Shown here in pieces: positions 33,632 through 46,049 of a stretch of 64,000 nt of DNA. This stretch comes from Oceanispirochaeta sp. GTDB lineage: Bacteria > Spirochaetota > Spirochaetia > DSM-2461. Both the position numbers and the translations under genes were made by a program. Positions within the stretch are counted from its first letter, which is position 1. Every line of letters begins with the position of its first letter. Under the pieces are notes generated by a model. The model was not told the origin of the DNA and made no database searches. It worked only from the letters and a program-made list of their open reading frames with translations. The stretch lies in contig CAXXOA010000001.1 in the NCBI GenBank assembly GCA_963666275.2, positions 1,888,001 through 1,952,000 on the forward strand, written 5' to 3'.

Positions 33632-33668
33632 AAAAAAGCTGAATACAAAATGTATTCAGCTTTTTTTT
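33632..33668. terminator. Bidirectional intrinsic terminator
   Basis: AAAAAAGCTGAATACA-aaa-TGTATTCAGCTTTTTT between convergent genes. Confidence 0.88.
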
Positions 33669-34449
33669 ACATTAGAACACCCTCTTTTTGTGAAAGTGGA
33701 TTATCTTCATCGCCGAAAAGAGCATTAATCATCTCTGTAAGCTCAGAATTCACTCTTTTAAGATGATACAGAATTGTCCAGGGGTAACCAGCCTGAAAGA
33801 TCTCCTGATTCATCTGAGCCAGTGATTCCGGGGTCCGCAGCCATAGATAAGTGACAGGCGTTATTTCATCCAAGGGGATAAGACTCAGCATTGCAGGAAG
33901 TATATTATTGTCCACCCACAGGGGATCTATTGATTTCAGGGTATACATAAGGTACCAGTAGGAAAATTCGCTATTACTGTCAAAAAGACTGGGAATGAAC
34001 CAGGGATATTCCTGTAAAGGAAGGCTGTGAACTATCAGGTATTGCAGTTCTTCATAATACTCGTTTCTGATGAGGGAAAGAATGCCCGAGTTCCTGTCCA
34101 GAATCTTTTCAGTGAATTGTTTTTTCTCTTCCGGACTCCAGTTCTGATATTTCAGAATTCTATGAAAACTTTCCACAACAAAAAGGTCTTTCCCGGCACT
34201 GTAATTGACAAATTCCATCAGCCATTCAGGGGAATCAATATCTCTGCGAATGAGTGCAAAAGCTTCATCTATCTCCTGAAGAGATGCCTCCATCTCATTG
34301 ACTGCAAGTTCAACAGAACGGATATCTCCCGTATCCGTTGACTCACCAATGATCATGCCTGAAGTCTCACCGGAGTTTACTGCGGAGACACACCCGGAAT
34401 AGATCAGAGCAAGAAAAAATATGAATAAACTATTTATAACCTTTTTCAT
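33667..34449 (-). CDS. Hypothetical lipoprotein
   Basis: Signal peptide with lipobox (MKKVINSLFIFFLALIYSGC) if translation starts at 34449. No recognised domain. Confidence 0.65.
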   Translation of the reverse strand: MKKVINSLFIFFLALIYSGCVSAVNSGETSGMIIGESTDTGDIRSVELAVNEMEASLQEIDEAFALIRRDIDSPEWLMEFVNYSAGKDLFVVESFHRILKYQNWSPEEKKQFTEKILDRNSGILSLIRNEYYEELQYLIVHSLPLQEYPWFIPSLFDSNSEFSYWYLMYTLKSIDPLWVDNNILPAMLSLIPLDEITPVTYLWLRTPESLAQMNQEIFQAGYPWTILYHLKRVNSELTEMINALFGDEDNPLSQKEGVLM

Positions 34450-34529
34450 AGAAACCAATATACCATAAATTATTATGTTTTCATGCCCTTCCATAAAACA
34501 ATAATATTATATATATTTGTTTTTATATA

Positions 34530-34557
34530 TTGACAAAAAAAGAATTCCCGATATATT
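34530..34557 (+). promoter_or_regulatory. Putative sigma70 promoter of the methyltransferase-peptide-radical SAM operon
   Basis: TTGACA (34530-34535)-16 nt-TATATT. Confidence 0.55.
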
Positions 34558-34601
34558 TATAGATATATATTTACACTTTCTTGATTATTAAGGAGATTCC
34601 T

Positions 34602-35249
34602 TTGGAAGTACTAGATGCCATAAATATTCGTTACAGTGAACTTTCCAACAGTGACTGCTGTCTATCCTGCGGAAAAGCACTTCAGTTTGCCGGTCCCGGT
34701 GAAGGAGAGACCTGTGTGGATCTGGGTTCGGGCAGAGGCAATGATGTCATCCGTATGGCCGAATCAGTGGGCGAAACAGGGTTTGCCTATGGTATAGATC
34801 TATCTGACGGTATGATAAGCAAAGCAAAAAGGAATGCCGAAAAGCTGGGTGTGAAAAATGTTGAGTTTCTCCAGTCGGATCTTGAAACTCTGCCTCTGAA
34901 ATGCGGTTCTGTGGATTTAATCATATCGAACTGCGTACTCAATCATGTCAAAGATAAATCAAAAGTCTGGTCTGAAATCTACAGGACCCTGAAAACTGGG
35001 GGCAGATTTGTTGTAAGTGATATCTATGCAACACAGACTGTTCCGGAAAAATATGCCAATGATCCTGCCGCTGTTGCAGAATGCTGGGCGGGAGCCGTTA
35101 CAAGAAAAGAATATATGGCGCTTCTGGAAGGTGCCGGATTTAAAAATATTACTGTCCTGGAAGAGACAAAACCCTATGATAAAGGGGAAATTCAAGTAGT
35201 CAGTTTTACACTTTCCGGCTTTAAAACCGGTGAGTGCAGCTGTAAATAA
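34602..35249 (+). CDS. SAM-dependent methyltransferase, arsenite methyltransferase (ArsM)-like
   Basis: DLGSGRGND SAM motif. Cys motifs CCLSCG, ISNCVLN and ECWAGA match ArsM LGCG, SNCV and C.AGA; C-terminal CSC. AAGGAG SD precedes TTG 34602. Confidence 0.8.
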   Translation: MEVLDAINIRYSELSNSDCCLSCGKALQFAGPGEGETCVDLGSGRGNDVIRMAESVGETGFAYGIDLSDGMISKAKRNAEKLGVKNVEFLQSDLETLPLKCGSVDLIISNCVLNHVKDKSKVWSEIYRTLKTGGRFVVSDIYATQTVPEKYANDPAAVAECWAGAVTRKEYMALLEGAGFKNITVLEETKPYDKGEIQVVSFTLSGFKTGECSCK

Positions 35250-35266
35250 ATTTGGAGGAAAGATCA

Positions 35267-35362
35267 ATGAAATCTCTCATCCGTAAAAAATCAGATAAAG
35301 CAGTGAAAACAGCACAGTGCTGTGCCAAAATTTCACCTGTTGTAGCTGGTTGTCACGACTAA
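35267..35362 (+). CDS. 31-aa putative RiPP precursor peptide MKSLIRKKSDKAVKTAQCCAKISPVVAGCHD (not in ORF track)
   Basis: GGAGGA SD at 35254-35259, ATG 35267, TAA 35360-35362. Basic N-terminal half and three Cys in the C-terminal half. Lies directly upstream of a radical SAM/SPASM gene. Confidence 0.85.
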   Translation: MKSLIRKKSDKAVKTAQCCAKISPVVAGCHD

Positions 35363-35395
35363 ATGAATTCCGGGCCTTCGGGCCCGGAATTTCAT
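35363..35395 (+). promoter_or_regulatory. Stable C(UUCG)G hairpin right after the peptide gene (stabiliser or attenuator)
   Basis: 11-bp perfect stem AATTCCGGGCC-TTCG-GGCCCGGAATT, extendable by TGA/TCA with one bulge. No poly-U tail. Confidence 0.75.
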
Positions 35396-35427
35396 AGCAC
35401 ACGCCTCAAGGAACAACTTTATAAACT

Positions 35428-36741
35428 ATGGAACTATCAAAATACACAATCTTTTCCAAGCTGAAAGACTCGACTAACTGGTTCATCATCAATCTGCTCA
35501 CTGGTGAAGCGGATATCCTGGATGAATCCACTGGAGAATCCATACAGAACGGAGACTTTCCCGATCCGCAGCCCTATATCGAAAAGGGGTACATTATGGA
35601 TCCCCGGGAGGAGGAAAAGCTTTTTAAATCCCGGTATCTTGACTTCAAAGAACAGCAGGAAAAATCTGAAACACAGATATTCTATGTTCCCACCTATCAG
35701 TGCAATTTTGCCTGTACGTACTGTTATCAGGAAAGTTACGAAAATCCTCCCCGGGAACAGCAGCTGGCTGTAATGGACAGTTTTTTTTCCCATCTGGACA
35801 GAAATTTTGCAGGAAAACCTTTCTATGTCACTCTCTTCGGGGGAGAACCGCTCCTTCCGGATAAAATCAGCCAGGAAAACATATCCTACTTTCTGGATGA
35901 AGCGGATAAAAGGAATATTTCTCTTGCGGTCGTGACTAACGGTTATTCTCTGGATTCCTATCTCCACAGGCTGCAGAGATCCAATATTCGCGAAATTCAG
36001 ATAACCCTGGATGGTGTAGGGGAAATCCATGATAAACGACGTCCTCTAAAGGGCGGACAGCCTACTTTTGAAAAAGTGGCGCAGAATATATCCAGTTGCC
36101 TGAATGCGGGGATCTCCGTAAACCTGAGGGCTGTTGTGGACAAACAGAACATAAAAGGACTGGTCGATCTGGCCCGTTATGCTATCCGGAATAAGTGGAC
36201 TGAATCTCCCTTATTTAAAACACAGCTGGGAAGAAACTATGAACTTCATACATGCCAGAGTGGACATAAGTACCTCTTCAGCAGAGTGGAAATGTACCAG
36301 GAACTCTACACACTCCTCAAGGATTACCCTGAAATAGGAGACTTTCATACACCGGCCTTTTCCATTTCCCGTTTTCTCCATGAAAACGGGGAGCTTCCGG
36401 AACCACTGTTTGACTCCTGTCCGGGGGGAAAAACAGAGTGGGCCTTTGACTATACCGGAAAGATTTTTCCCTGTACGGCCATGGTGGGAAAAGCCGGAGA
36501 AGAGCTGGGACAGTTTTATCCCGAATCCTTTCTGGAAGAATCAAAATGCGATCCCTGGCAGGACCGGGATGTTCTGGCAATAAGCGAATGCCGTGACTGC
36601 AGCCTTCAGCTGGCCTGCGGAGGCGGCTGCGGAGCCGTTTCCAAAAACCGCACAGGAACAGTACTGTCTCCAGACTGTAGACCTGTAAAAGAGTTAATGG
36701 AGATGGGAATATCATTGTATTTTAATCAAGGAGATATATGA
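35428..36741 (+). CDS. Radical SAM/SPASM domain peptide maturase
   Basis: CNFACTYC, FGGEPLL, VTNG and QITLDG....HDKRR motifs. SPASM cysteines CPGG, IFPC, CRDCSLQLACGGGC and DC. About 80-aa N-terminal extension where an RRE would sit. Confidence 0.92.
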   Translation: MELSKYTIFSKLKDSTNWFIINLLTGEADILDESTGESIQNGDFPDPQPYIEKGYIMDPREEEKLFKSRYLDFKEQQEKSETQIFYVPTYQCNFACTYCYQESYENPPREQQLAVMDSFFSHLDRNFAGKPFYVTLFGGEPLLPDKISQENISYFLDEADKRNISLAVVTNGYSLDSYLHRLQRSNIREIQITLDGVGEIHDKRRPLKGGQPTFEKVAQNISSCLNAGISVNLRAVVDKQNIKGLVDLARYAIRNKWTESPLFKTQLGRNYELHTCQSGHKYLFSRVEMYQELYTLLKDYPEIGDFHTPAFSISRFLHENGELPEPLFDSCPGGKTEWAFDYTGKIFPCTAMVGKAGEELGQFYPESFLEESKCDPWQDRDVLAISECRDCSLQLACGGGCGAVSKNRTGTVLSPDCRPVKELMEMGISLYFNQGDI

Positions 36742-38024
36742 TGGCTGGAAAAATTCAGGAAATTAAACAGGATGAGTGGTCGGAAGCTGTATTAAAACAG
36801 GAAAAGGTGGTTGTAGATTTCTATTCTACAGAGTGTCCCCCCTGTGAAGCCCTGGCTTCGAAATATACAGCGCTCAGTGAACTTTACGGAGATGATATCA
36901 AATTTGTAAAAATATTCAGACAGGGAAACAGAGAACTCTCGGAAGAGCTGGGCGTATCAGGATCTCCTACGGTTCTTTTCTATGAAAATGGGAAAGAGAT
37001 CGGGACCCGACTGGCCGGAGGAGTGAAAAGGTCTGATATGATGAATCAGCTGGACACTATGGCTGGAGAAACCAGAGCATCAGAAATTCATAATTCCATT
37101 GAGAAAATACAGACAGAATATGATGTAGCCATCCTGGGAGGAGGGCCCGCCGGACTGACGGCGGGGATCTACCTGGGCCAGGCTCATATCAAAACAGTGC
37201 TGATTGATACTGCTCTTTCCGGAGGCTATGTTTCAACAACCCATCAGGTATCAAACTATCCCGGTTTTATAGAACCTCAGCAGGGTTTTATGCTGGCGCA
37301 TTATATGAGCGAACAGGCCAAGGGAGCGGGTATTGATTTCAGACAGGCCGTCGAAGTCACATCGATAGATCTGGATAATAAAAAAATCCTTATTGATAAC
37401 GTTGAAACAATTCATGCCAAACAGATAATAATAGCAACCGGTTCTTCACCCCGGCCTTTGGGTATTCCCGGTGAGATGGAGTACAGAGGGAATGGAATAT
37501 CCTATTGTGCCACCTGTGATGCCAAGTATTTCGAAGACAGAGAAGTGATTGTTATCGGCGGTGGAAACAGCGCAATTGAAGAATCACTGTTTATTGCACG
37601 ATTTGCCAGAAAAATCACAATTGTCCATCAGTTTGCAGAACTGCAGGCCAATAAACAGGCCCAGGAAGAAGTTTTCAATAACGATAAAATTGAAATTCTT
37701 TTTGAGCATGAACCCAGAGAATTCATCAAAAACGGAAATATGGATATGAGTGTACTGGTAGAGGATCTTAAAACAGGTAAAACCAAAACTCTCAATGCCA
37801 ACGGGATTTTCGTCTTTGTTGGTTTTCAGTCCAATCTGAGCGGATTCCCCGAAACTCTGGCGAAAGATCAGTGGGGTTATTTGACTACAGATGAAAAAAT
37901 GGAAACAAATATACCCGGCGTTTATGCAGCAGGGGATATTAAATCAAAAGCCTACAGACAGATTACCACCGCAGTCTCAGATGGTACCATAGCTGCTATT
38001 ACGATTTCAAAAGAACTGTCCTGA
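36738..38024 (+). CDS. Thioredoxin / thioredoxin-disulfide reductase fusion protein
   Basis: N-terminal Trx domain (VVDFYSTECPPC, SPT.LFY). Then GGGPAGLTA, NYPG, GISYCATCD, GGGNSA, GVYAAGD and QITTAVSDG. ATGA overlap with the radical SAM gene. Confidence 0.9.
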   Translation: MMAGKIQEIKQDEWSEAVLKQEKVVVDFYSTECPPCEALASKYTALSELYGDDIKFVKIFRQGNRELSEELGVSGSPTVLFYENGKEIGTRLAGGVKRSDMMNQLDTMAGETRASEIHNSIEKIQTEYDVAILGGGPAGLTAGIYLGQAHIKTVLIDTALSGGYVSTTHQVSNYPGFIEPQQGFMLAHYMSEQAKGAGIDFRQAVEVTSIDLDNKKILIDNVETIHAKQIIIATGSSPRPLGIPGEMEYRGNGISYCATCDAKYFEDREVIVIGGGNSAIEESLFIARFARKITIVHQFAELQANKQAQEEVFNNDKIEILFEHEPREFIKNGNMDMSVLVEDLKTGKTKTLNANGIFVFVGFQSNLSGFPETLAKDQWGYLTTDEKMETNIPGVYAAGDIKSKAYRQITTAVSDGTIAAITISKELS

Positions 38025-38047: not shown

Positions 38048-39499
38048 TTAGAGAAGAGGGGAGAATATCCTGCAGAAAGAGTTCCTGAAACGGGCGGGAA
38101 GAGAAATTCCTTTCAAATGTTCAATTGTTATTTCCCGGCAGGATTCCCTGTCTCTGTAGAATTGTTCTTTCAGTTGCAGTGTCAATTGCTCATCATAGAA
38201 TACAGCATTAACCTCATAATTCAGGCGGAAGCTTCGGACATCCATATTGCAGGATCCCACAGTGGAAACCTGGTCATCCATTACAAGCATTTTACTGTGC
38301 AGGAACCCTTCTTCATAATGAAAGATTTTAACGCCTGATTCCAGGAGAGGCTGAAAATAGGTAAATGCTGACCACCAGGGTATCCTTTTATCGGGAATCC
38401 CCGCCATCATAAACTGTACATTGACACCACTGAGTGCTGCAGATTCCATGGCTTTCAGGATAGCCTGATCCGGAATGAAATAGGGACTCTGTATCAGAAT
38501 TTCATGACTGGCATTATTGATCATATTAAAATAGAGCAATTCCAGGGAATCCCATTTGGAATCCGGGCCGCTCACAGCAATCTGAACAGGTTTATTCATC
38601 TGTCTGCGTTCCTGAAATTTGAAAATCCCCGAATCCGGAAGTGTTTCTTTCTGACAGTTATACCAGTCTGCCATGAAAATAGTCTGCAGTAAACCGACCG
38701 AACTCCCTGTCATTCTTATATGCGTATCCCGCCAACGGGAAAACTTTTTTCCCCCTGTGATATATTCCTCACCAATGTTCATACCGCCCGTATAAGCGAT
38801 CTTTCCGTCAATAACAACTATTTTCTTATGGTTACTGTAATTGATCTTCAGACGGGCAATAAAACGGTTTAAATCAAGAAAATAGCTGAATTGTATACCC
38901 GATTCCCGTAATTCTCTCCTGTATTTGAATGAGATCCGTCCGAAGGATCCCAGACCGTCAAAAATCAGACGGACAGCAACTCCCTGTCGGACTTTATTTA
39001 TAAGAATCTCTTTTATCTTTTCTCCCAGAGAATCAGAGCGCCAGATGAAATATTCCATATGGATAGATTCTTCAGCATTTTCAAGATCCCTCAGTAAATC
39101 CGGAAAATGATCACTTCCGGAAAAATAGAGATTTACAGAATTATCTATGGTCAAAGGGACCATGCTGCTGTTCAGAAGAAGGTTCATGTTTTTCACAACA
39201 TCATTCATGGCGTCATCAGAAATTTCTGAGGAATTAATTGTTTCTTTCTGATATTCTATGATCGCTCTGTAATGGTCCTGAAAATATTCCTCCGGGATCC
39301 GGGGCACCAGTTTGTACTTCCTCCAGTCCAGACCGATGAGAATGTAGAGAGCTATTCCAATGATGGGAAAGATCAGTATGACCAGTATCCAGGCTATGGA
39401 GGCGTCGCTCTCTTTATTTGCCAGAATTATAGCGACGATGGACAGGAATGTTATAAAAACATTCAGTATGTAGAGGATTTGAAGGACTGTTGCTATCAT
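38048..39499 (-). CDS. cls: Cardiolipin synthase
   Basis: Two N-terminal TMs and two PLD motifs (NHKKIVVIDG, LHSKMLVMDD); SGPDS and SF.LNYE. Confidence 0.93.
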   Translation of the reverse strand: MIATVLQILYILNVFITFLSIVAIILANKESDASIAWILVILIFPIIGIALYILIGLDWRKYKLVPRIPEEYFQDHYRAIIEYQKETINSSEISDDAMNDVVKNMNLLLNSSMVPLTIDNSVNLYFSGSDHFPDLLRDLENAEESIHMEYFIWRSDSLGEKIKEILINKVRQGVAVRLIFDGLGSFGRISFKYRRELRESGIQFSYFLDLNRFIARLKINYSNHKKIVVIDGKIAYTGGMNIGEEYITGGKKFSRWRDTHIRMTGSSVGLLQTIFMADWYNCQKETLPDSGIFKFQERRQMNKPVQIAVSGPDSKWDSLELLYFNMINNASHEILIQSPYFIPDQAILKAMESAALSGVNVQFMMAGIPDKRIPWWSAFTYFQPLLESGVKIFHYEEGFLHSKMLVMDDQVSTVGSCNMDVRSFRLNYEVNAVFYDEQLTLQLKEQFYRDRESCREITIEHLKGISLPARFRNSFCRIFSPLL

Positions 39500-40546: not shown

Positions 40547-40574
40547 AAAAAAGCCGCTTTAAAGCGGCTTTTTT
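40547..40574. terminator. Bidirectional intrinsic terminator
   Basis: Perfect 28-bp palindrome AAAAAAGCCGCTTTAAAGCGGCTTTTTT between convergent genes. Confidence 0.85.
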
Positions 40575-42121
40575 TAGTTTCCTTTTCCCAGGAATTCCCG
40601 GAATCTCTCAGGATCAGATCTGAATCCTACTATGGGATTTTCAAAGTCTGTTTTATTGAGTGAAGTGGAAGCTTCCCTGATCAATCTTTTTCCACTGATT
40701 AACCGTCCGTTACGGGAGGAGAGTCCGGCTGAGATTGTTGCTCCCTCAAGAGTGTCTTCCAGTCCCTTCAGAAAACTCTGAATATCCTTGATAGAGGCAT
40801 CCAGATCTTTATTGGGGTCAATGATGGCCATGGCATTATCTCCGGCTTCAAAAGCCAGATCATTGTAACTGTATTTCTCTTTTACCTGAGATGTAAAATG
40901 GTCAAACTCATTTTCACCTGATCCTGTATATCGGAGAATGACAAGAACAAGATCCTGATCGAAAGATGCGGCCCTTTCAAGTTCCAGGCTCAAACGTTCT
41001 TCCAGGAAATGTTCCCATCCCAGACCGCTGTCCGGATTATACAGAGAAGGCTGGGCATCCGTTTCTTTTCCCTGTTCAACATCAAGATCACTGCCGGTTT
41101 CAACCTCTTCAAAATCCATATCACCGAAAGAATCAAAATTCTCTTCTTCCGGGAGGGAGAAATCATCCAGTGAATCAGACTGATCGTCTTCGGAAGTTTC
41201 AAAAGACGTTTCCTGATGATCCATTTCCAAAAGATCTTCCTCTTCAGGAATGTCAGGGATACTGTCCTCCATATTGAAGTCATCCATATCAAGTGATTCT
41301 TCATCGGGCATACTGAAATCACTATCCAAATCTATATCGTCACCGAATGAGTCGTCCATTCCGAAAGAGTCATCATTTTCCAGGCTCCCGCCATCCATCG
41401 GTTCAGAGAGGTCAAGATCTGATTCTATCGGTGAATCTTCAAAGGGATCATGAGAATCGGCGAAGTTTGTATCATCTCCGGAATCATCCGGATTTTCAGA
41501 ATTCCAGGATTCGTCTTCTTCCATCTGGTTTTTATCAGAAGAGAGACTATAGATGACAATCAGAAGGAGTGTAATAAAGAAAAGGGCAATGACAACGATC
41601 AGTGAGATTTTCAGAACATAAAAAATTGATCCCCGCGGAAGAACGGTATAGATACAATCAATATTTACACCGGATTTCCCTGTAATCTGAAGAGGAATGC
41701 TGCCAACACTGTGGACAAAACTGATTCCCTTGTATTCAGGGGAAGGATCATCAACAGCATCATTTTCCGAAGTATTCACTTTCACCTGATTGTTGCGGCT
41801 GTAAAAGTATTCAATTCCTGTATCGTAGGAGTAGATAGTAATAGCCATCAGTTCTGATTTGTCATTAAATACAGACTTGATTTTATCACTGAAATCATTG
41901 TTATAAAGAGAATCATTCTGATTCATAAAATCTGAAACTTCCGAAGCAAGTTCTGGAATTTGTTTTGCAATTATTTCAGAATTTAATTTACGCTGATTAA
42001 AAAGGTAGTAGCCGGACCATCCTGCTGTTGCTATAAGTATTATTATTACAAGAATTGTATGTACTGTTGTTAGTGCCTTTTTCATAGTAATCATTATACG
42101 CAGAAATAAAGTTTTGTGCAT
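40574..42121 (-). CDS. Membrane protein with two TMs, an acidic linker and a degenerate GGDEF-like C-terminal domain
   Basis: TM-periplasmic-TM layout, D/E-rich linker, then SGLGWEHFLEERLSLELERAASFDQDL...ISAGLS. No GG(D/E)EF motif. Start uncertain. Confidence 0.7.
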   Translation of the reverse strand: MHKTLFLRIMITMKKALTTVHTILVIIILIATAGWSGYYLFNQRKLNSEIIAKQIPELASEVSDFMNQNDSLYNNDFSDKIKSVFNDKSELMAITIYSYDTGIEYFYSRNNQVKVNTSENDAVDDPSPEYKGISFVHSVGSIPLQITGKSGVNIDCIYTVLPRGSIFYVLKISLIVVIALFFITLLLIVIYSLSSDKNQMEEDESWNSENPDDSGDDTNFADSHDPFEDSPIESDLDLSEPMDGGSLENDDSFGMDDSFGDDIDLDSDFSMPDEESLDMDDFNMEDSIPDIPEEEDLLEMDHQETSFETSEDDQSDSLDDFSLPEEENFDSFGDMDFEEVETGSDLDVEQGKETDAQPSLYNPDSGLGWEHFLEERLSLELERAASFDQDLVLVILRYTGSGENEFDHFTSQVKEKYSYNDLAFEAGDNAMAIIDPNKDLDASIKDIQSFLKGLEDTLEGATISAGLSSRNGRLISGKRLIREASTSLNKTDFENPIVGFRSDPERFREFLGKGN

Positions 42122-42141: not shown

Positions 42142-42960
42142 ATGAGCCGGAGAAAAATGACACTGCCTGAGGGATGGTATCCTCATGAAAAAGACGCAGT
42201 GGAAAAAATTATTGAATCATGGAGTATAATTCATCCGGAAAACAGGGGAAAACATGTGGCGGGGATTGTACCCCATGCGGGCTGGTATTATTCTGGTAAA
42301 GCCGCCTGGAACCTGGTCAACAGAATTCCTGAAAACACTGAAACTGTCATAATTTCGGGAGGACATCTGTCTGAAAGCAGTACTCCAAAATGCTGGAAAT
42401 TCAAAGAGTTCGAGATCCCCGGAGGACATCTGGAGAAGGATGAAGAACTCTTCATGGAAATATGTCAGGAAATGGAAGCAGATTACACTGCCGATAATAC
42501 AATAGAGGTTCTACTGCCACTGATTGCGTATAAATTACAGGATGTAAAAGTACTCGCAATGAGACTACCTCCTCATGAATCATCCTATGAATGGGGCTGG
42601 AAAGCGGGAGAAGCCTCCGGGAAATTTGGAAAAAAAACATTTTTTATCGGCTCTACCGATCTGACTCACTACGGTGATGCCTATGGCAACACCTTGTACA
42701 GCAGGGAAAAGGATCCTTTATCAGAATCCCATAAAAAAGAGCAGCATCTATTCACTCTACTCAATGAAGGAAGGATTCAGGAAGCCCTGGAATTCGATGA
42801 ACGATGGAAAACCTCCTGTTCACTGGGAGCCGCCCTGGGAGCTGTCGGTTTTGCCGATTTTTATAAAAAACTTCCCGGAGAAGTACTATCTATTACAAGC
42901 AGTGCTGATATTACAGGTGACAGGGATAGTTTTGTAAACTACGGAACTTTACTTTTCTAA
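42142..42960 (+). CDS. MEMO1 family protein (AmmeMemoRadiSam protein B-like)
   Basis: GWYP, IVPHAGWYYSG, DNTIEV.LP, STDLTHYG and SFVNYG motifs. Confidence 0.85.
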   Translation: MSRRKMTLPEGWYPHEKDAVEKIIESWSIIHPENRGKHVAGIVPHAGWYYSGKAAWNLVNRIPENTETVIISGGHLSESSTPKCWKFKEFEIPGGHLEKDEELFMEICQEMEADYTADNTIEVLLPLIAYKLQDVKVLAMRLPPHESSYEWGWKAGEASGKFGKKTFFIGSTDLTHYGDAYGNTLYSREKDPLSESHKKEQHLFTLLNEGRIQEALEFDERWKTSCSLGAALGAVGFADFYKKLPGEVLSITSSADITGDRDSFVNYGTLLF

Positions 42961-44604
42961 CAATAGAACTTGATCAATACTGTCGATACACCATTTCATT
43001 GCCCTCTTTACAGCGTCTTCACCGGAATCTGATTTTTTTCTGAATTGCGCTGCCACAGGGAGCAGGGTAATCCAGGCCTGCCGCTGCTGCGGATTGAGGG
43101 AATTCAGATAGGAGACAACGGATCCGTTCAAACGAGGCAACTCCTGAATTCTATTTCTGTAGGATATCAGAAAATCTCTGTAGGAAGAAACTGGTACACC
43201 CGCACTGACAAGTCGGTTTATACGGCTCTTTCCCTGGTTTTTGCCAATTGTTTTCAGAGTTACACCGTCTCCCTGAAGAGCTATAACTTGACTGTTACTA
43301 TTGGCAGCTTTTTTTTCAATGCTGTTTTTATAATAGATCATCGGTTTTGAAATATACCTGAAACCATTGACGGTTTTCTCCCGGATAATACTCTTATTAT
43401 GGAGAACAAAAGAGACAATCTGAGATTCAATGTCCTTGAACCTGTTTGTTCTAGTATAGAAATAGGGATAAATATAGGTATTTCTTGCGTATGGCTTCCC
43501 GAAAGGATAGGAGAAGTCCGCTCCCAGGAGATAGATTTTTCGTGCACCCAGAGTTTCGGCAAGACTTAATGCCGCATGTGTGACATTGCCTCCGGAAGTA
43601 TCTATTTCGGGGAATTGCCTGAACTCCTGACTGACATACTTTGAAAAAGGGTGATCACTTGTAAAAAAGAATATCTTTTCTGCAATTCTTGTCAGAAAGG
43701 ACGGTGACGCGAGGTCAAGAACCAGGGGAACATCTTCAGGATATCCCTGCATAAAATGATTGTAGCTTATATGCTGACAATCTATGGAAATGACAAGATC
43801 CGGTCTGATTCCGTTAGCAAGAAGAACCGGCAGGGAAGTATCTGTTGCAATGATAGTATCTTTTCCCTGAACTTCCCTTAATACAGGCAGCTGATCCTCC
43901 AGAGAAGGGCCTGCTGCTGTTATATAGGCTGTGGAAACAGGAGAAAGAGTCTGGGTCGTTTTTTCCGACATCCCCAGGTTATATAGAGTATTGTTAAACC
44001 ATCTTTTGCCGAAATGAGCCTGAACTGTATAATCGTCTGTAATCTGATTGATAGCTTCTTTAATGATATCCGACAGAGTATTGAAAAACTCCTGATCGAG
44101 AAAAACCCTGGGCTTGAGAGAGACTGTCTGAAGATTACCCGAGAGGACAGGAATATAACGTGTCAGGAGAAAATCTGTGAATTTTTCTGGTTCTTCAGAG
44201 ACCCATAAGGTCACCCTTTGATCCAGGAATATATCAGTTAAATCGATATTGCCCAAAATGGATTTAACCTCGTCAGATCTGTTCTCCACGATAATCAGAG
44301 AGGTTATGGAACTGTTGGCAAGTAAAGATCTGATATGAAAACCTCCCCCCAGTCCGAACACAATGACCATCCCTTCATAAGTGTTTTCAAGAAAAAGTCT
44401 GTTTCCTTCTTTTACAGGATCGAATGTGGAATGAACCGGTTTGGCTGAGGTTTGATCTCTTTTATAGAAAGGAATTATATGTCCATTGCGGGAGAGTTCG
44501 AAAAAGACAGTGTCAGAACAATCAGAATTACCAATAAGATGGGAAGCTTCGGATGACCTCTGTATTAAAGCCAGAAGATTCCTTTCGAGTATTTCTGTTA
44601 TCAT
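42949..44604 (-). CDS. Maf / DUF115 (MptE-like) family protein, putative flagellin glycosyltransferase
   Basis: HSTFDPVKEG, FGLGGG.H, FGKRW..N, AAGPSL, D....L...GI.PD, GGNV and LLGADFSY motifs. Confidence 0.8.
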   Translation of the reverse strand: MITEILERNLLALIQRSSEASHLIGNSDCSDTVFFELSRNGHIIPFYKRDQTSAKPVHSTFDPVKEGNRLFLENTYEGMVIVFGLGGGFHIRSLLANSSITSLIIVENRSDEVKSILGNIDLTDIFLDQRVTLWVSEEPEKFTDFLLTRYIPVLSGNLQTVSLKPRVFLDQEFFNTLSDIIKEAINQITDDYTVQAHFGKRWFNNTLYNLGMSEKTTQTLSPVSTAYITAAGPSLEDQLPVLREVQGKDTIIATDTSLPVLLANGIRPDLVISIDCQHISYNHFMQGYPEDVPLVLDLASPSFLTRIAEKIFFFTSDHPFSKYVSQEFRQFPEIDTSGGNVTHAALSLAETLGARKIYLLGADFSYPFGKPYARNTYIYPYFYTRTNRFKDIESQIVSFVLHNKSIIREKTVNGFRYISKPMIYYKNSIEKKAANSNSQVIALQGDGVTLKTIGKNQGKSRINRLVSAGVPVSSYRDFLISYRNRIQELPRLNGSVVSYLNSLNPQQRQAWITLLPVAAQFRKKSDSGEDAVKRAMKWCIDSIDQVLLLEK

Positions 44605-46049
44605 AAAAGCTCCAGAGTTTTCACTAATTGATTCAAATCAGACTGCCATTGTAAATCTTCAGGGTTGTTAAATAAAGATTTTGTCAGGGAATTATAGTTG
44701 TCCGGATGGGAGATCCAATGATTCAGTAATTTCAGGCATCTTTCTTTCCTCGCTTCCCTGGTGCCTTCCGATGGAATTAACTTAAATTCCTCAGTTATCT
44801 GTTTAACATTTGCAAAGCCTTCAAGAGAGGAAATCTCTTTCATGGGAAGAGAAACAGGAGAAGGTGAGACACGAACGATCCTGCTGTTATAGGTGTTTTT
44901 ACCAAACCAGTTACGATATGTAATCATGCTGTTTGAGTAATAGTAGCCATCCTTCCGTGAAGCCGCAAGGGCTTTGATGCGTTCGTATCTGTACTGTGTC
45001 CCTGTCTTGAAACGGCAGGAATCCTTAACAGAATAAATTTCAAATGGATGAGGAGAAACATGTTCCTGAAGATCTTTCATACACAGATCAAGTCCCAGAA
45101 TATAGATTTCCGATGAGGAAAGCTGCTGTAGAATGCCAAGCGCAGTAGCCGCCACAGTTCCCATTTCTGGGACAGTAAAGGAAAATTCGCCCTGCTGCCA
45201 TAATAATTTATCGAGTTCACTTAACTGATTGATCCCGATAAGAGGATTGGAAAGAACCTTGGGATAGGCGGAAAGTGGCGCCGCTACCGGGACCTTTTCC
45301 GGAAACCTTCTGTAATGCTCGGAAGCATAATATCCAGGATCTGTTGAAATAATAAGATCCGGGATAATTCCATTTGCAACCAGAGCCTCAACAGAAGAAG
45401 GAAGCGCGGCAATAAATAAATTATTACGGAATTTAGTCAGCTCCTCCATATGCCAGTTCAAAGAAAAACCGGAAGCCGCCAAAATGACATTTCTATTGAT
45501 TGTTCCAATGAAAAGATTATAATTCTGCTGAATATAATTCAGGAGACTGTTTTTCAGCCATTTCTTTCCGAACTTTACAGTGGTAATCTCATTGGCCTGG
45601 AGGATTTTCATATATTGGAGGAGACTTGTTTGAATTTCTTTGTATAATTCTGGAAAGATTCTGATCCCAGGAGACCATTCCAGAATTCTTATATTCTGAA
45701 TTTTATAGCCTCCAAGATTTTTTTCAAGAAACTGAACAGCTGTATCAGGACGTCCGGGAAACCAGCACTTCAGGTTTTCAAGCAGTCCTTTTCTATAACA
45801 GTATGTATAGGTTTCATTAGATAAAAAAAAGACAATAATTTCAGATATTTCCTGGTTTTCCAACAGGGACAGAAGATATCCCAGACCAGGTTCAATTACA
45901 ATAAGAGAAGAAGTGGGATTTAATGGGTTTTTCTCTATCCAGAGCTTAAAAAACTTTTCAGCCTCTTTAAGAGGAGAAAATTTCGAATGAATCAGCTGTC
46001 CGTTTATGCAGGCAGAGTTTAAACCATCTCTGGTTTCAAGCAACTCCAT
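44601..46049 (-). CDS. Maf / DUF115 (MptE-like) family protein, second paralogue
   Basis: IHSKFSPLKEA, PGLGY, FGKKW.KN, ASGFSL, GIIPDLIISTDPG, GTVAATA and LGLDL motifs. Confidence 0.75.
   Translation of the reverse strand: MELLETRDGLNSACINGQLIHSKFSPLKEAEKFFKLWIEKNPLNPTSSLIVIEPGLGYLLSLLENQEISEIIVFFLSNETYTYCYRKGLLENLKCWFPGRPDTAVQFLEKNLGGYKIQNIRILEWSPGIRIFPELYKEIQTSLLQYMKILQANEITTVKFGKKWLKNSLLNYIQQNYNLFIGTINRNVILAASGFSLNWHMEELTKFRNNLFIAALPSSVEALVANGIIPDLIISTDPGYYASEHYRRFPEKVPVAAPLSAYPKVLSNPLIGINQLSELDKLLWQQGEFSFTVPEMGTVAATALGILQQLSSSEIYILGLDLCMKDLQEHVSPHPFEIYSVKDSCRFKTGTQYRYERIKALAASRKDGYYYSNSMITYRNWFGKNTYNSRIVRVSPSPVSLPMKEISSLEGFANVKQITEEFKLIPSEGTREARKERCLKLLNHWISHPDNYNSLTKSLFNNPEDLQWQSDLNQLVKTLELL

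Follow-up and report, generated by a model that had tools for sequence, protein, structure and literature searches.

A conserved four-gene cassette of Oceanispirochaeta sp. combines a short cysteine peptide and a radical SAM/SPASM enzyme with an ArsM-like methyltransferase and a thioredoxin system

Gene layout and conservation of the cassette

The cassette described here was found in a 64,000-nucleotide (nt) stretch of Oceanispirochaeta sp. (assembly GCA_963666275.2, contig CAXXOA010000001.1, positions 1,888,001 to 1,952,000), which was analysed as a whole and is called the window below. Four co-oriented open reading frames (ORFs) on its forward strand encode, in this order, a shortened S-adenosylmethionine (SAM) methyltransferase resembling ArsM, a 31-residue peptide, a radical SAM/SPASM enzyme, and a fusion of thioredoxin (Trx) with thioredoxin reductase (TrxR) (Table 1). 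Gaps of 17 nt and 65 nt separate the first two gene pairs, the last two genes share an ATGA overlap at 36738-36741, and opposite-strand genes flank the cassette on both sides (33667-34494 and 38048-39499). The gaps, the overlap and the opposite-strand flanks agree with a preliminary description of the locus.

A genome scan with the radical SAM enzyme gave 477 stretches encoding relatives, the best 80 of which were analysed. All four genes occur in the same order in 65 of the 65 loci with sufficient context on both sides, so that the peptide and methyltransferase neighbours which the preliminary description had proposed to look for beside radical SAM homologues are indeed found throughout these loci. 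Methyltransferase and peptide are present in 69/69 loci with at least 1100 nt upstream, and Trx-TrxR in 75/76 loci with at least 600 nt downstream, the exception being L021. The peptide was found in 76 of the 80 loci, and the four misses are cut by a contig end. More distant radical SAM genes, taken as a control set, have the peptide motif in none of 32 loci, and the motif occurs only once in the six frames of the 5.27-Mb genome to which the window belongs. These results confirm that the four genes form a real, widespread and co-conserved system, and exclude chance linkage.

The cassette is found in many sediment-type bacteria. Carrier records are labelled Spirochaetota, Bacteroidales, Ignavibacteria, Elusimicrobiota and delta proteobacteria, and the nearest relatives of the window copy are labelled Spirochaetales. 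L018, labelled Syntrophomonadaceae (Bacillota), was left out of this count; its radical SAM enzyme shares 82% identity with that of an Ignavibacteriales copy, whose peptide matches as well, which suggests either a mislabel or a recent transfer. In a sample of the window's phylum, 36/301 genomes carry the radical SAM gene and all 36 also carry the short methyltransferase, while the peptide lies at most 1.5 kb from the radical SAM gene in 29 of 30 inspected loci and a few kb away in the 30th. The distribution is patchy among close kin, six of ten other genomes of the genus having the cassette. Searches centred on two other genomes gave 7/251 and 11/251 carriers; 14 of 16 regions retrieved contain the peptide, and the other two are distant radical SAM genes without it. 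A metagenome scan added 79 loci, about 49 of them family members and 30 distant radical SAM genes, and one protein search returned 2912 clusters at E < 1e-150. No carriers were found in viral contigs, nor in plasmids at E 1e-40, and an ESM Atlas search returned generic radical-SAM names only. Seven distant radical SAM/SPASM genes (L182, L185, L188, L196, L199, L201, L203) have other Cys-rich small ORFs upstream and are unrelated candidates for systems of peptides made by the ribosome and then post-translationally modified (RiPP systems).

The linkage survives rearrangement (G055, L225, L228-L230 and L233). In a sister clade (L115-L120), with radical SAM enzymes 37-41% identical, the peptide is longer and has an extra CC in its leader, the methyltransferase has neither the C19-C20 pair nor the Cys tail, and the radical SAM enzyme lacks C276; a DUF5714 Cys-rich protein adjoins the cassette in 4/6 of these loci. 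The third arrangement, known from the four rearranged loci L228-L230 and L233, three of them near-identical, has a radical SAM gene that converges on the other four components, namely methyltransferase, peptide, Trx and TrxR, which all share the opposite strand. The matches to Trx and to TrxR are apart from each other here, and probably represent two genes. At L123 (G055:C75, 3-12730), the methyltransferase and radical SAM genes are headed by ccdA and a gene resembling ArsR/BigR; the peptide gene runs divergently from these, with Trx-TrxR at a distance of 2 kb. Two single loci differ otherwise. The radical SAM gene of L071 (6001-8607) runs in frame into Trx-TrxR without a stop, which may be a triple fusion existing in nature or an error of one base in the assembly, and L144 (7300-8030) has a frameshifted radical SAM gene of the family with a thioredoxin directly upstream and no peptide found there.

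Table 1 Features of the cassette, in positions of the window
Feature	Positions	Strand	Basis
Sigma70-type promoter candidate, TTGACA-16-TATATT	34530..34557	+	11/12 consensus match
Shortened ArsM-like SAM methyltransferase, 215 residues	34602..35249	+	NF008823 score, CmArsM alignment, fold model
Shine-Dalgarno sequence of the peptide gene, GGAGGA, 7 nt before ATG 35267	35254..35259	+	sequence
Precursor peptide gene, 31 residues	35267..35362	+	conserved core, complex model
GC-rich 12-bp hairpin behind the peptide stop, UUCG loop	35365..35392	+	z -4.0
Radical SAM/SPASM maturase, 437 residues	35428..36741	+	Cys motifs, CteB alignment, fold model
Thioredoxin-thioredoxin reductase fusion	36738..38024	+	Pfam PF00085 + PF07992

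The promoter already named in the preliminary description is plausible: its TTGACA site is the best among 15 consensus matches, of which shuffled sequences give 10.9 on average. Judged from its AAGGAG 6 nt upstream, TTG 34602 is probably the start of the methyltransferase, rather than 34581, and Trx-TrxR may start at its second ATG, 36741. The hairpin behind the peptide gene, overlooked in the preliminary description, was equalled by 0/200 shuffles, and hairpins with z < -2 lie downstream of 91 of 171 peptide motif matches (two of the 171 being spurious); it probably stabilises the upstream mRNA.

Of the flanking genes, 38048-39499 encodes a cardiolipin synthase (446 bits, cut-off 290), and 33667-34494, divergent from the cassette, a 275-residue protein with a lipoprotein-like N-terminus and without Pfam or NCBIfam family. 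Further on, the reverse strand of the window has a gene (40574-42121) for a 515-residue membrane protein, which belongs to no Pfam family and contains a long acidic stretch of low complexity, and two tandem MptE-like/Maf-type genes (42949-46049) that probably serve flagellin glycosylation.

The peptide and the three encoded enzymes

The window peptide consists of a basic leader, a variable linker and an invariant core. This core, A-Q-C-C-x-K-x-[S/T]-x4-G-C-H-D-stop (residues 16-31), is nearly invariant in 109 distinct versions: A16, C18, C19, K21, G28, C29, H30 and D31 are fixed in 109/109, as is the stop directly after D31, Q17 is found in 108, and position 23 is S in 106 and T in three. The count derives from 171 motif matches with 111 distinct C-terminal 17-mers, two of them spurious, and we used distinct sequences as the fair count because some genomes were reached twice. 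The fixed residues are encoded by mixed synonymous codons. Since the motif also occurs only once in the window genome and in none of the control loci, the peptide is more than a chance ORF. The linker contains an additional Cys pair in 28/157 distinct peptides. The peptide has no Pfam or NCBIfam family, its gene is often uncalled, and of four peptides looked up, two are missing from the protein collection, while the remaining two have either no name there or the name "hypothetical". The preliminary description had already singled out this unannotated 31-residue peptide with its strong Shine-Dalgarno sequence.

Two other ideas about the peptide were discarded. Selenocysteine read-through was rejected, the stop being TAA in 106, TGA in 48 and TAG in 17 matches, with no in-frame stop reported in full-length core genes. 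Descent from a detached N-terminal arm of ArsM was rejected as homology, with a profile-match probability of 0.8%. Stops flagged inside the matches of four relatives proved to be terminal in each of three that were checked.

The radical SAM enzyme has a CxxxCxxC motif at 92/96/99 and seven SPASM Cys (331, 349, 388, 391, 397, 401, 417) with the spacing of CteB. All 11 Cys, including C276, are present in 79/79 main-clade rows (full-length rows; partial and split ones were dropped). C276 is restricted to the main clade and was rejected as an essential extra ligand, being absent from 6/6 sister-clade enzymes. The fold model (predicted local distance difference test score, pLDDT, 91.8) begins with three strands followed by helices in residues 1-80, and the closest solved relative is CteB both by sequence and by fold (template modelling score, TM, 0.67; 16-18% identity). 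CteB has an open iron on auxiliary cluster I, and by analogy the window enzyme would have one as well.

A model of the complex places leader residues 1-6 of the peptide as an added strand on residues 26-31 of the enzyme, in agreement with the earlier view of this protein as a peptide maturase. The model scores 0.84 (run agreement 33% or more, partner pLDDT 48 or more), compared to 0.02 for the best of three controls, and the mark set for such models was reached by 116/157 solved and 2/215 mismatched pairs; this indicates likeness, and the pass may come from the predictor's memory of solved CteB-type complexes.

The methyltransferase fold model (pLDDT 93.9) has ArsM structures as all of its top ten Foldseek matches (TM 0.73-0.80), and among solved proteins ArsM/AS3MT come closest to it both in sequence and in fold. 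In the alignment, C23, C111 and C161 correspond to C72, C174 and C224 of CmArsM. According to PMC6138428, C174 and C224 bind the arsenical in CmArsM, whereas C44 and C72 relay electrons and are required for no methylation but the first; the reductant is proposed to be thioredoxin. The three equivalent Cys are found in 72/72 main-clade rows, in 6/6 sister-clade enzymes (31-44% identity) and in the four loci of the third arrangement, and their retention over such deep divergence is best explained by a two-thiol metalloid site with a relay. C19 and C20, which are present in 69 and 68 of the 72 main-clade rows and absent from 6/6 sister rows, could substitute for C44 of ArsM. The window enzyme also has a Cys-rich tail.

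Nevertheless, this is not a canonical ArsM. The enzyme scores 207.3 bits with NF008823 (ArsM), against a curated cut-off of 263, and compared to 28 canonical ArsM rows the N-terminal CC..CC arm is wholly deleted. The clade has fixed residues of its own, such as H115. In a quick tree of 83 rows, rooted at the midpoint only, with no outgroup and without the fusion proteins, the main (16 rows), sister (6) and canonical (34) groups separate with one change each (support 97, 94 and 95, the last being the SH-aLRT value, from the Shimodaira-Hasegawa-like approximate likelihood ratio test, for the canonical branch). The term "ArsM-like" used in the preliminary description holds for the fold and the three Cys. 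When 1.84 billion representatives were searched with a profile, the matches ranking below the short forms were for the most part longer proteins, 33/60 of those scanned passing the ArsM cut-off. P0205, one of the short forms not placed otherwise, matches the methyltransferase of the cassette locus L233, which raises the possibility of a short clade dedicated to the peptide. In four long-branch members of the short clade (P0157, P0158, P0161, P0168), at least one of the three Cys or the SAM motif is gone. Since a canonical ArsM above the cut-off is also present in 9/36 carriers (seven of them from one genus), the role of the short enzyme is not just that of a detoxifying ArsM.

In the fusion protein, a thioredoxin with a CPPC motif is joined to a reductase with a CATC motif, and the four Cys are found in 74/74 rows. 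TIGR01292 gives 310.7 bits, below its cut-off of 343.45. In the alignment, HQF replaces the HRR of solved NADPH-type TrxRs, and this HQF is found in at least 90% of relatives; the enzyme is therefore probably NADH-fed.

Possible roles in metalloid and thiol chemistry

We propose that the cassette could be an intracellular RiPP-type system for the thiol chemistry of trivalent metalloids, most likely arsenite or methylarsenite (MAs(III)). We give an even chance to the view that a cross-linked peptide is kept in the cell and handles trivalent arsenic together with the short ArsM and Trx-TrxR. First, the peptide leader would bind the recognition element of the radical SAM enzyme, as modelled. By CteB-type anatomy, a core Cys would then sit on the open iron of auxiliary cluster I and a Cys-to-carbon thioether would be formed, with the invariant S/T23, K21, Q17, H30 or the terminal D31 as candidate acceptors. 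By ArsM chemistry, As(III) or MAs(III) would be held on C111/C161 of the short ArsM and methylated with SAM, after which Trx-TrxR would re-reduce the methyltransferase and peptide thiols. The matured peptide would stay in the cell, its remaining thiols serving as metalloid carrier or as redox partner of the methyltransferase. It might take the place of the Cys arm deleted from the methyltransferase clade, or act as a trap for methylarsenite, which anaerobes are unable to detoxify with oxygen. Such a carrier, redox partner or trap inside the cell would be in keeping with the deletion of the arm, with an invariant core of three Cys, with the lack of an exporter and with the hairpin. No conserved protease or exporter was found near the cassette among the Pfam-scanned neighbours of 80 loci, as the preliminary description had reported for the cluster itself.

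Some loci lie beside arsenic genes. Islands of arsR-arsE-arsP adjoin the cassette in 3/138 loci (L002, L124 and L143), which belong to three different lineages; an arsR-arsE-ccdA-arsP island lies directly downstream in L143 (3795-8877, co-oriented) and in L002 (9133-12247, convergent). One of the three islands, that of G055, also has acr3, arsC and a canonical arsM above the cut-off; the full ars island at L123 in this genome comprises arsP, an arsE-type Trx, DGC, ccdA, arsR, the canonical arsM, acr3 and arsC. With two ArsP-like matches per 5.27 Mb in the window genome, 0.89 Mb of flank should contain about 0.3, a figure that is hand arithmetic on the density of one genome and suggestive only.

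Several observations weigh against the proposal. The methyltransferase does not reach the ArsM cut-off and lies outside the canonical clade of the quick, midpoint-rooted tree; the peptide has, by profile comparison, no homology to the deleted arm; and the complex model does not place the peptide core in the active site of the radical SAM enzyme. No ArsP, Acr3 or ArsC match lies near 135 of the 138 loci, the acr3-arsR locus of the window genome is on another contig than the cassette, and the ArsR heading the G055 cassette scores best, after a generic model, on BigR (61 against 155). Although acr3 is found in 30/36 carriers and 111/265 non-carriers of the phylum sample, this excess is gone within the two families compared (3/4 vs 9/10 and 5/7 vs 3/4), and acr3 co-occurrence was set aside as uninformative. 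Finally, the recurrent neighbours, namely DUF1847 (22/138), a two-Cys MarR (18/138), extra thioredoxins, rhodaneses, SQR-like proteins, OsmC, Crp and DsrE, point to thiol/sulfur stress.

DUF6132 and DUF302 recur as well, and YeeE/YedE, rubrerythrin, MsrAB and extra TrxR are further neighbours (Pfam scan of 27 cluster representatives and 111 near singletons out of 793 ORFs). The MarR gene, usually just upstream of the methyltransferase (e.g. L007, 134-568) and absent beside the window copy, encodes two conserved Cys in 13 of 14 aligned rows and is a candidate redox or metalloid sensor. No shared operator was found upstream of 70 methyltransferase genes, which have only AT-rich 8-mers in common. 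The only acr3 of the window genome (G000:C2:1246997-1250133) is in an operon with a 547-residue flavoprotein-like ORF, divergent from arsR.

A bolder possibility, to which we give a distinctly lower probability, is a RiPP with a C-As bond. The short ArsM would supply MAs(III) or dimethylarsenite (DMAs(III)) held by the peptide Cys, a radical generated by the maturase, either on the peptide or adenosyl, would add to arsenic, and Trx-TrxR would keep the arsenic trivalent, which would explain why methyltransferase, reductase and maturase stay together. There are precedents, as PMC13598754 describes the addition of alkyl radicals to As(III) in ArsL and ArsS, with trivalent substrates only, and the binding of As(III) by a CC and distal C pattern in ArsL. 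Nevertheless, the anatomy of the window enzyme is that of CteB, which forms thioethers, and the linkage to ars genes is as weak as described above. An arsenic-containing RiPP has reportedly been described from Roseimarinus sediminis, which would favour this reading and could concern the family described here; our searches neither found nor excluded that report, and not having found it counts against a C-As bond. The family of this species includes the carrier L030, and no protein named from it is among the best 120 of 2912 matches, most rows of which are nameless.

Still somewhat less probable, and unlikely in our estimate, is a thiol or sulfur-redox system without arsenic. Following the logic of mycofactocin and PQQ, the radical SAM enzyme would make a peptide-derived cofactor or low-mass thiol, methylation by the ArsM-derived enzyme would be directed at a peptide thiol, at sulfide/persulfide or at Se/Te species, with recycling of the product by Trx-TrxR. 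The stop fixed right after D31, the rhodanese, SQR-like, DsrE, YeeE/YedE, OsmC, rubrerythrin, MsrAB and extra Trx/TrxR neighbours, the two Cys of MarR, and fixed residues such as H115 are consistent with this, whereas the three ArsM Cys kept over deep divergence and the lack of a dedicated peptidase accompanying the cassette argue against it. The last alternative, that an ordinary ArsM and TrxR lie by chance beside an unrelated ranthipeptide pair or that the peptide ORF is no gene, might be suggested by how common Trx/TrxR and methyltransferase genes are, but is scarcely credible, being refuted by the fixed gene order, the linkage kept through rearrangement, the synonymous variation at invariant residues and the empty control loci.

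If arsenic is the substrate, the cassette would be a further route in the cycling of arsenic by anaerobes and might include a new C-As enzyme; a C-As-bonded product, if real, would represent a widespread and overlooked organoarsenic sink in anoxic sediments, joining RiPP and organoarsenic biosynthesis. If arsenic is not the substrate, the cassette would represent a new peptide-derived thiol cofactor and a repurposed ArsM. With four small genes and cultured carriers (e.g. L056), both outcomes are directly testable.

Comparison with known systems

The family is large, yet has no named model in NCBIfam 20.0, and we know of no RiPP class that includes an obligate ArsM-type enzyme and thioredoxin system. 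The preliminary description had called the system undescribed, which holds for the literature searched, where no description of the cassette was found and outside which lie most subscription journals and supplements, including possible precursor lists. We put at about one chance in four that the family has already been characterised.

The comparison with models of radical SAM and peptide families that had been suggested earlier was run, and no cut-off of a named family was passed. The radical SAM enzyme stays below the cut-off of each of the 25 NCBIfam models listed, the best full-length matches being the CefB (NF038107, Cys-every-fifth; 156 bits against 600) and TIGR04463 (119 against 525) maturases, and the precursor here has no repeated Cys spacing. 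The closest likeness is to CteB/SCIFF (thermocellin; PDB 5WGG, 5WHY) and PapB-type systems, with which the cassette shares the N-terminal recognition element, the radical SAM core and the seven-Cys SPASM domain. CteB/SCIFF also has a short Cys peptide with, as in our model, the leader bound as an added strand. Nevertheless, TIGR03974 gives 81.1 against 425, and the SCIFF precursor has six cysteines whereas the core here has three and ends in GCHD. PapB precursors have Cys-x3-Asp motifs, compared to C-x3-S/T and a terminal C-H-D here, and the PapB model (NF047865) gives 115.5 bits against 340. Unlike both CteB/SCIFF and PapB, the maturase here has an obligate methyltransferase and Trx-TrxR as partners.

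Mycofactocin and PQQ are peptide-derived intracellular cofactors that likewise have an invariant short core, a radical SAM/SPASM enzyme, no exporter and a wide, patchy spread. The core of mycofactocin is different, TIGR03962 (MftC) gives 59.2 against 265, and no dedicated peptidase is conserved in the 80 loci here.

On the methyltransferase side, ArsM/AS3MT (NF008823; PDB 4FSD, 5EVJ, 8XT7) shares the fold, the C72/C174/C224 equivalents and a thioredoxin partner with the enzyme described here, which, unlike them, lacks the N-terminal Cys arm and is tied to a peptide and a radical SAM enzyme, rarely to ars operons. The arsinothricin (ArsL and ArsM) and arsenosugar (ArsS and ArsM) clusters likewise combine a radical SAM enzyme with an ArsM-type enzyme, but these act on small molecules and without a precursor peptide. 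The arsinothricin ArsM models give 110.9 against 240 and 100.4 against 500, and a further ArsM model of these pathways gives 74 against 400. The analogy to ArsL and ArsM drawn in the preliminary description is therefore loose: it holds for the pairing of enzyme types, while the radical SAM enzyme is CteB-like and its C-terminus lacks the Cys motif that PMC13598754 gives for ArsL. Taken together, the sequence comparisons suggest a CteB-type ranthipeptide pair combined with an ArsM-type enzyme and a thioredoxin system, below the cut-offs of all named families.

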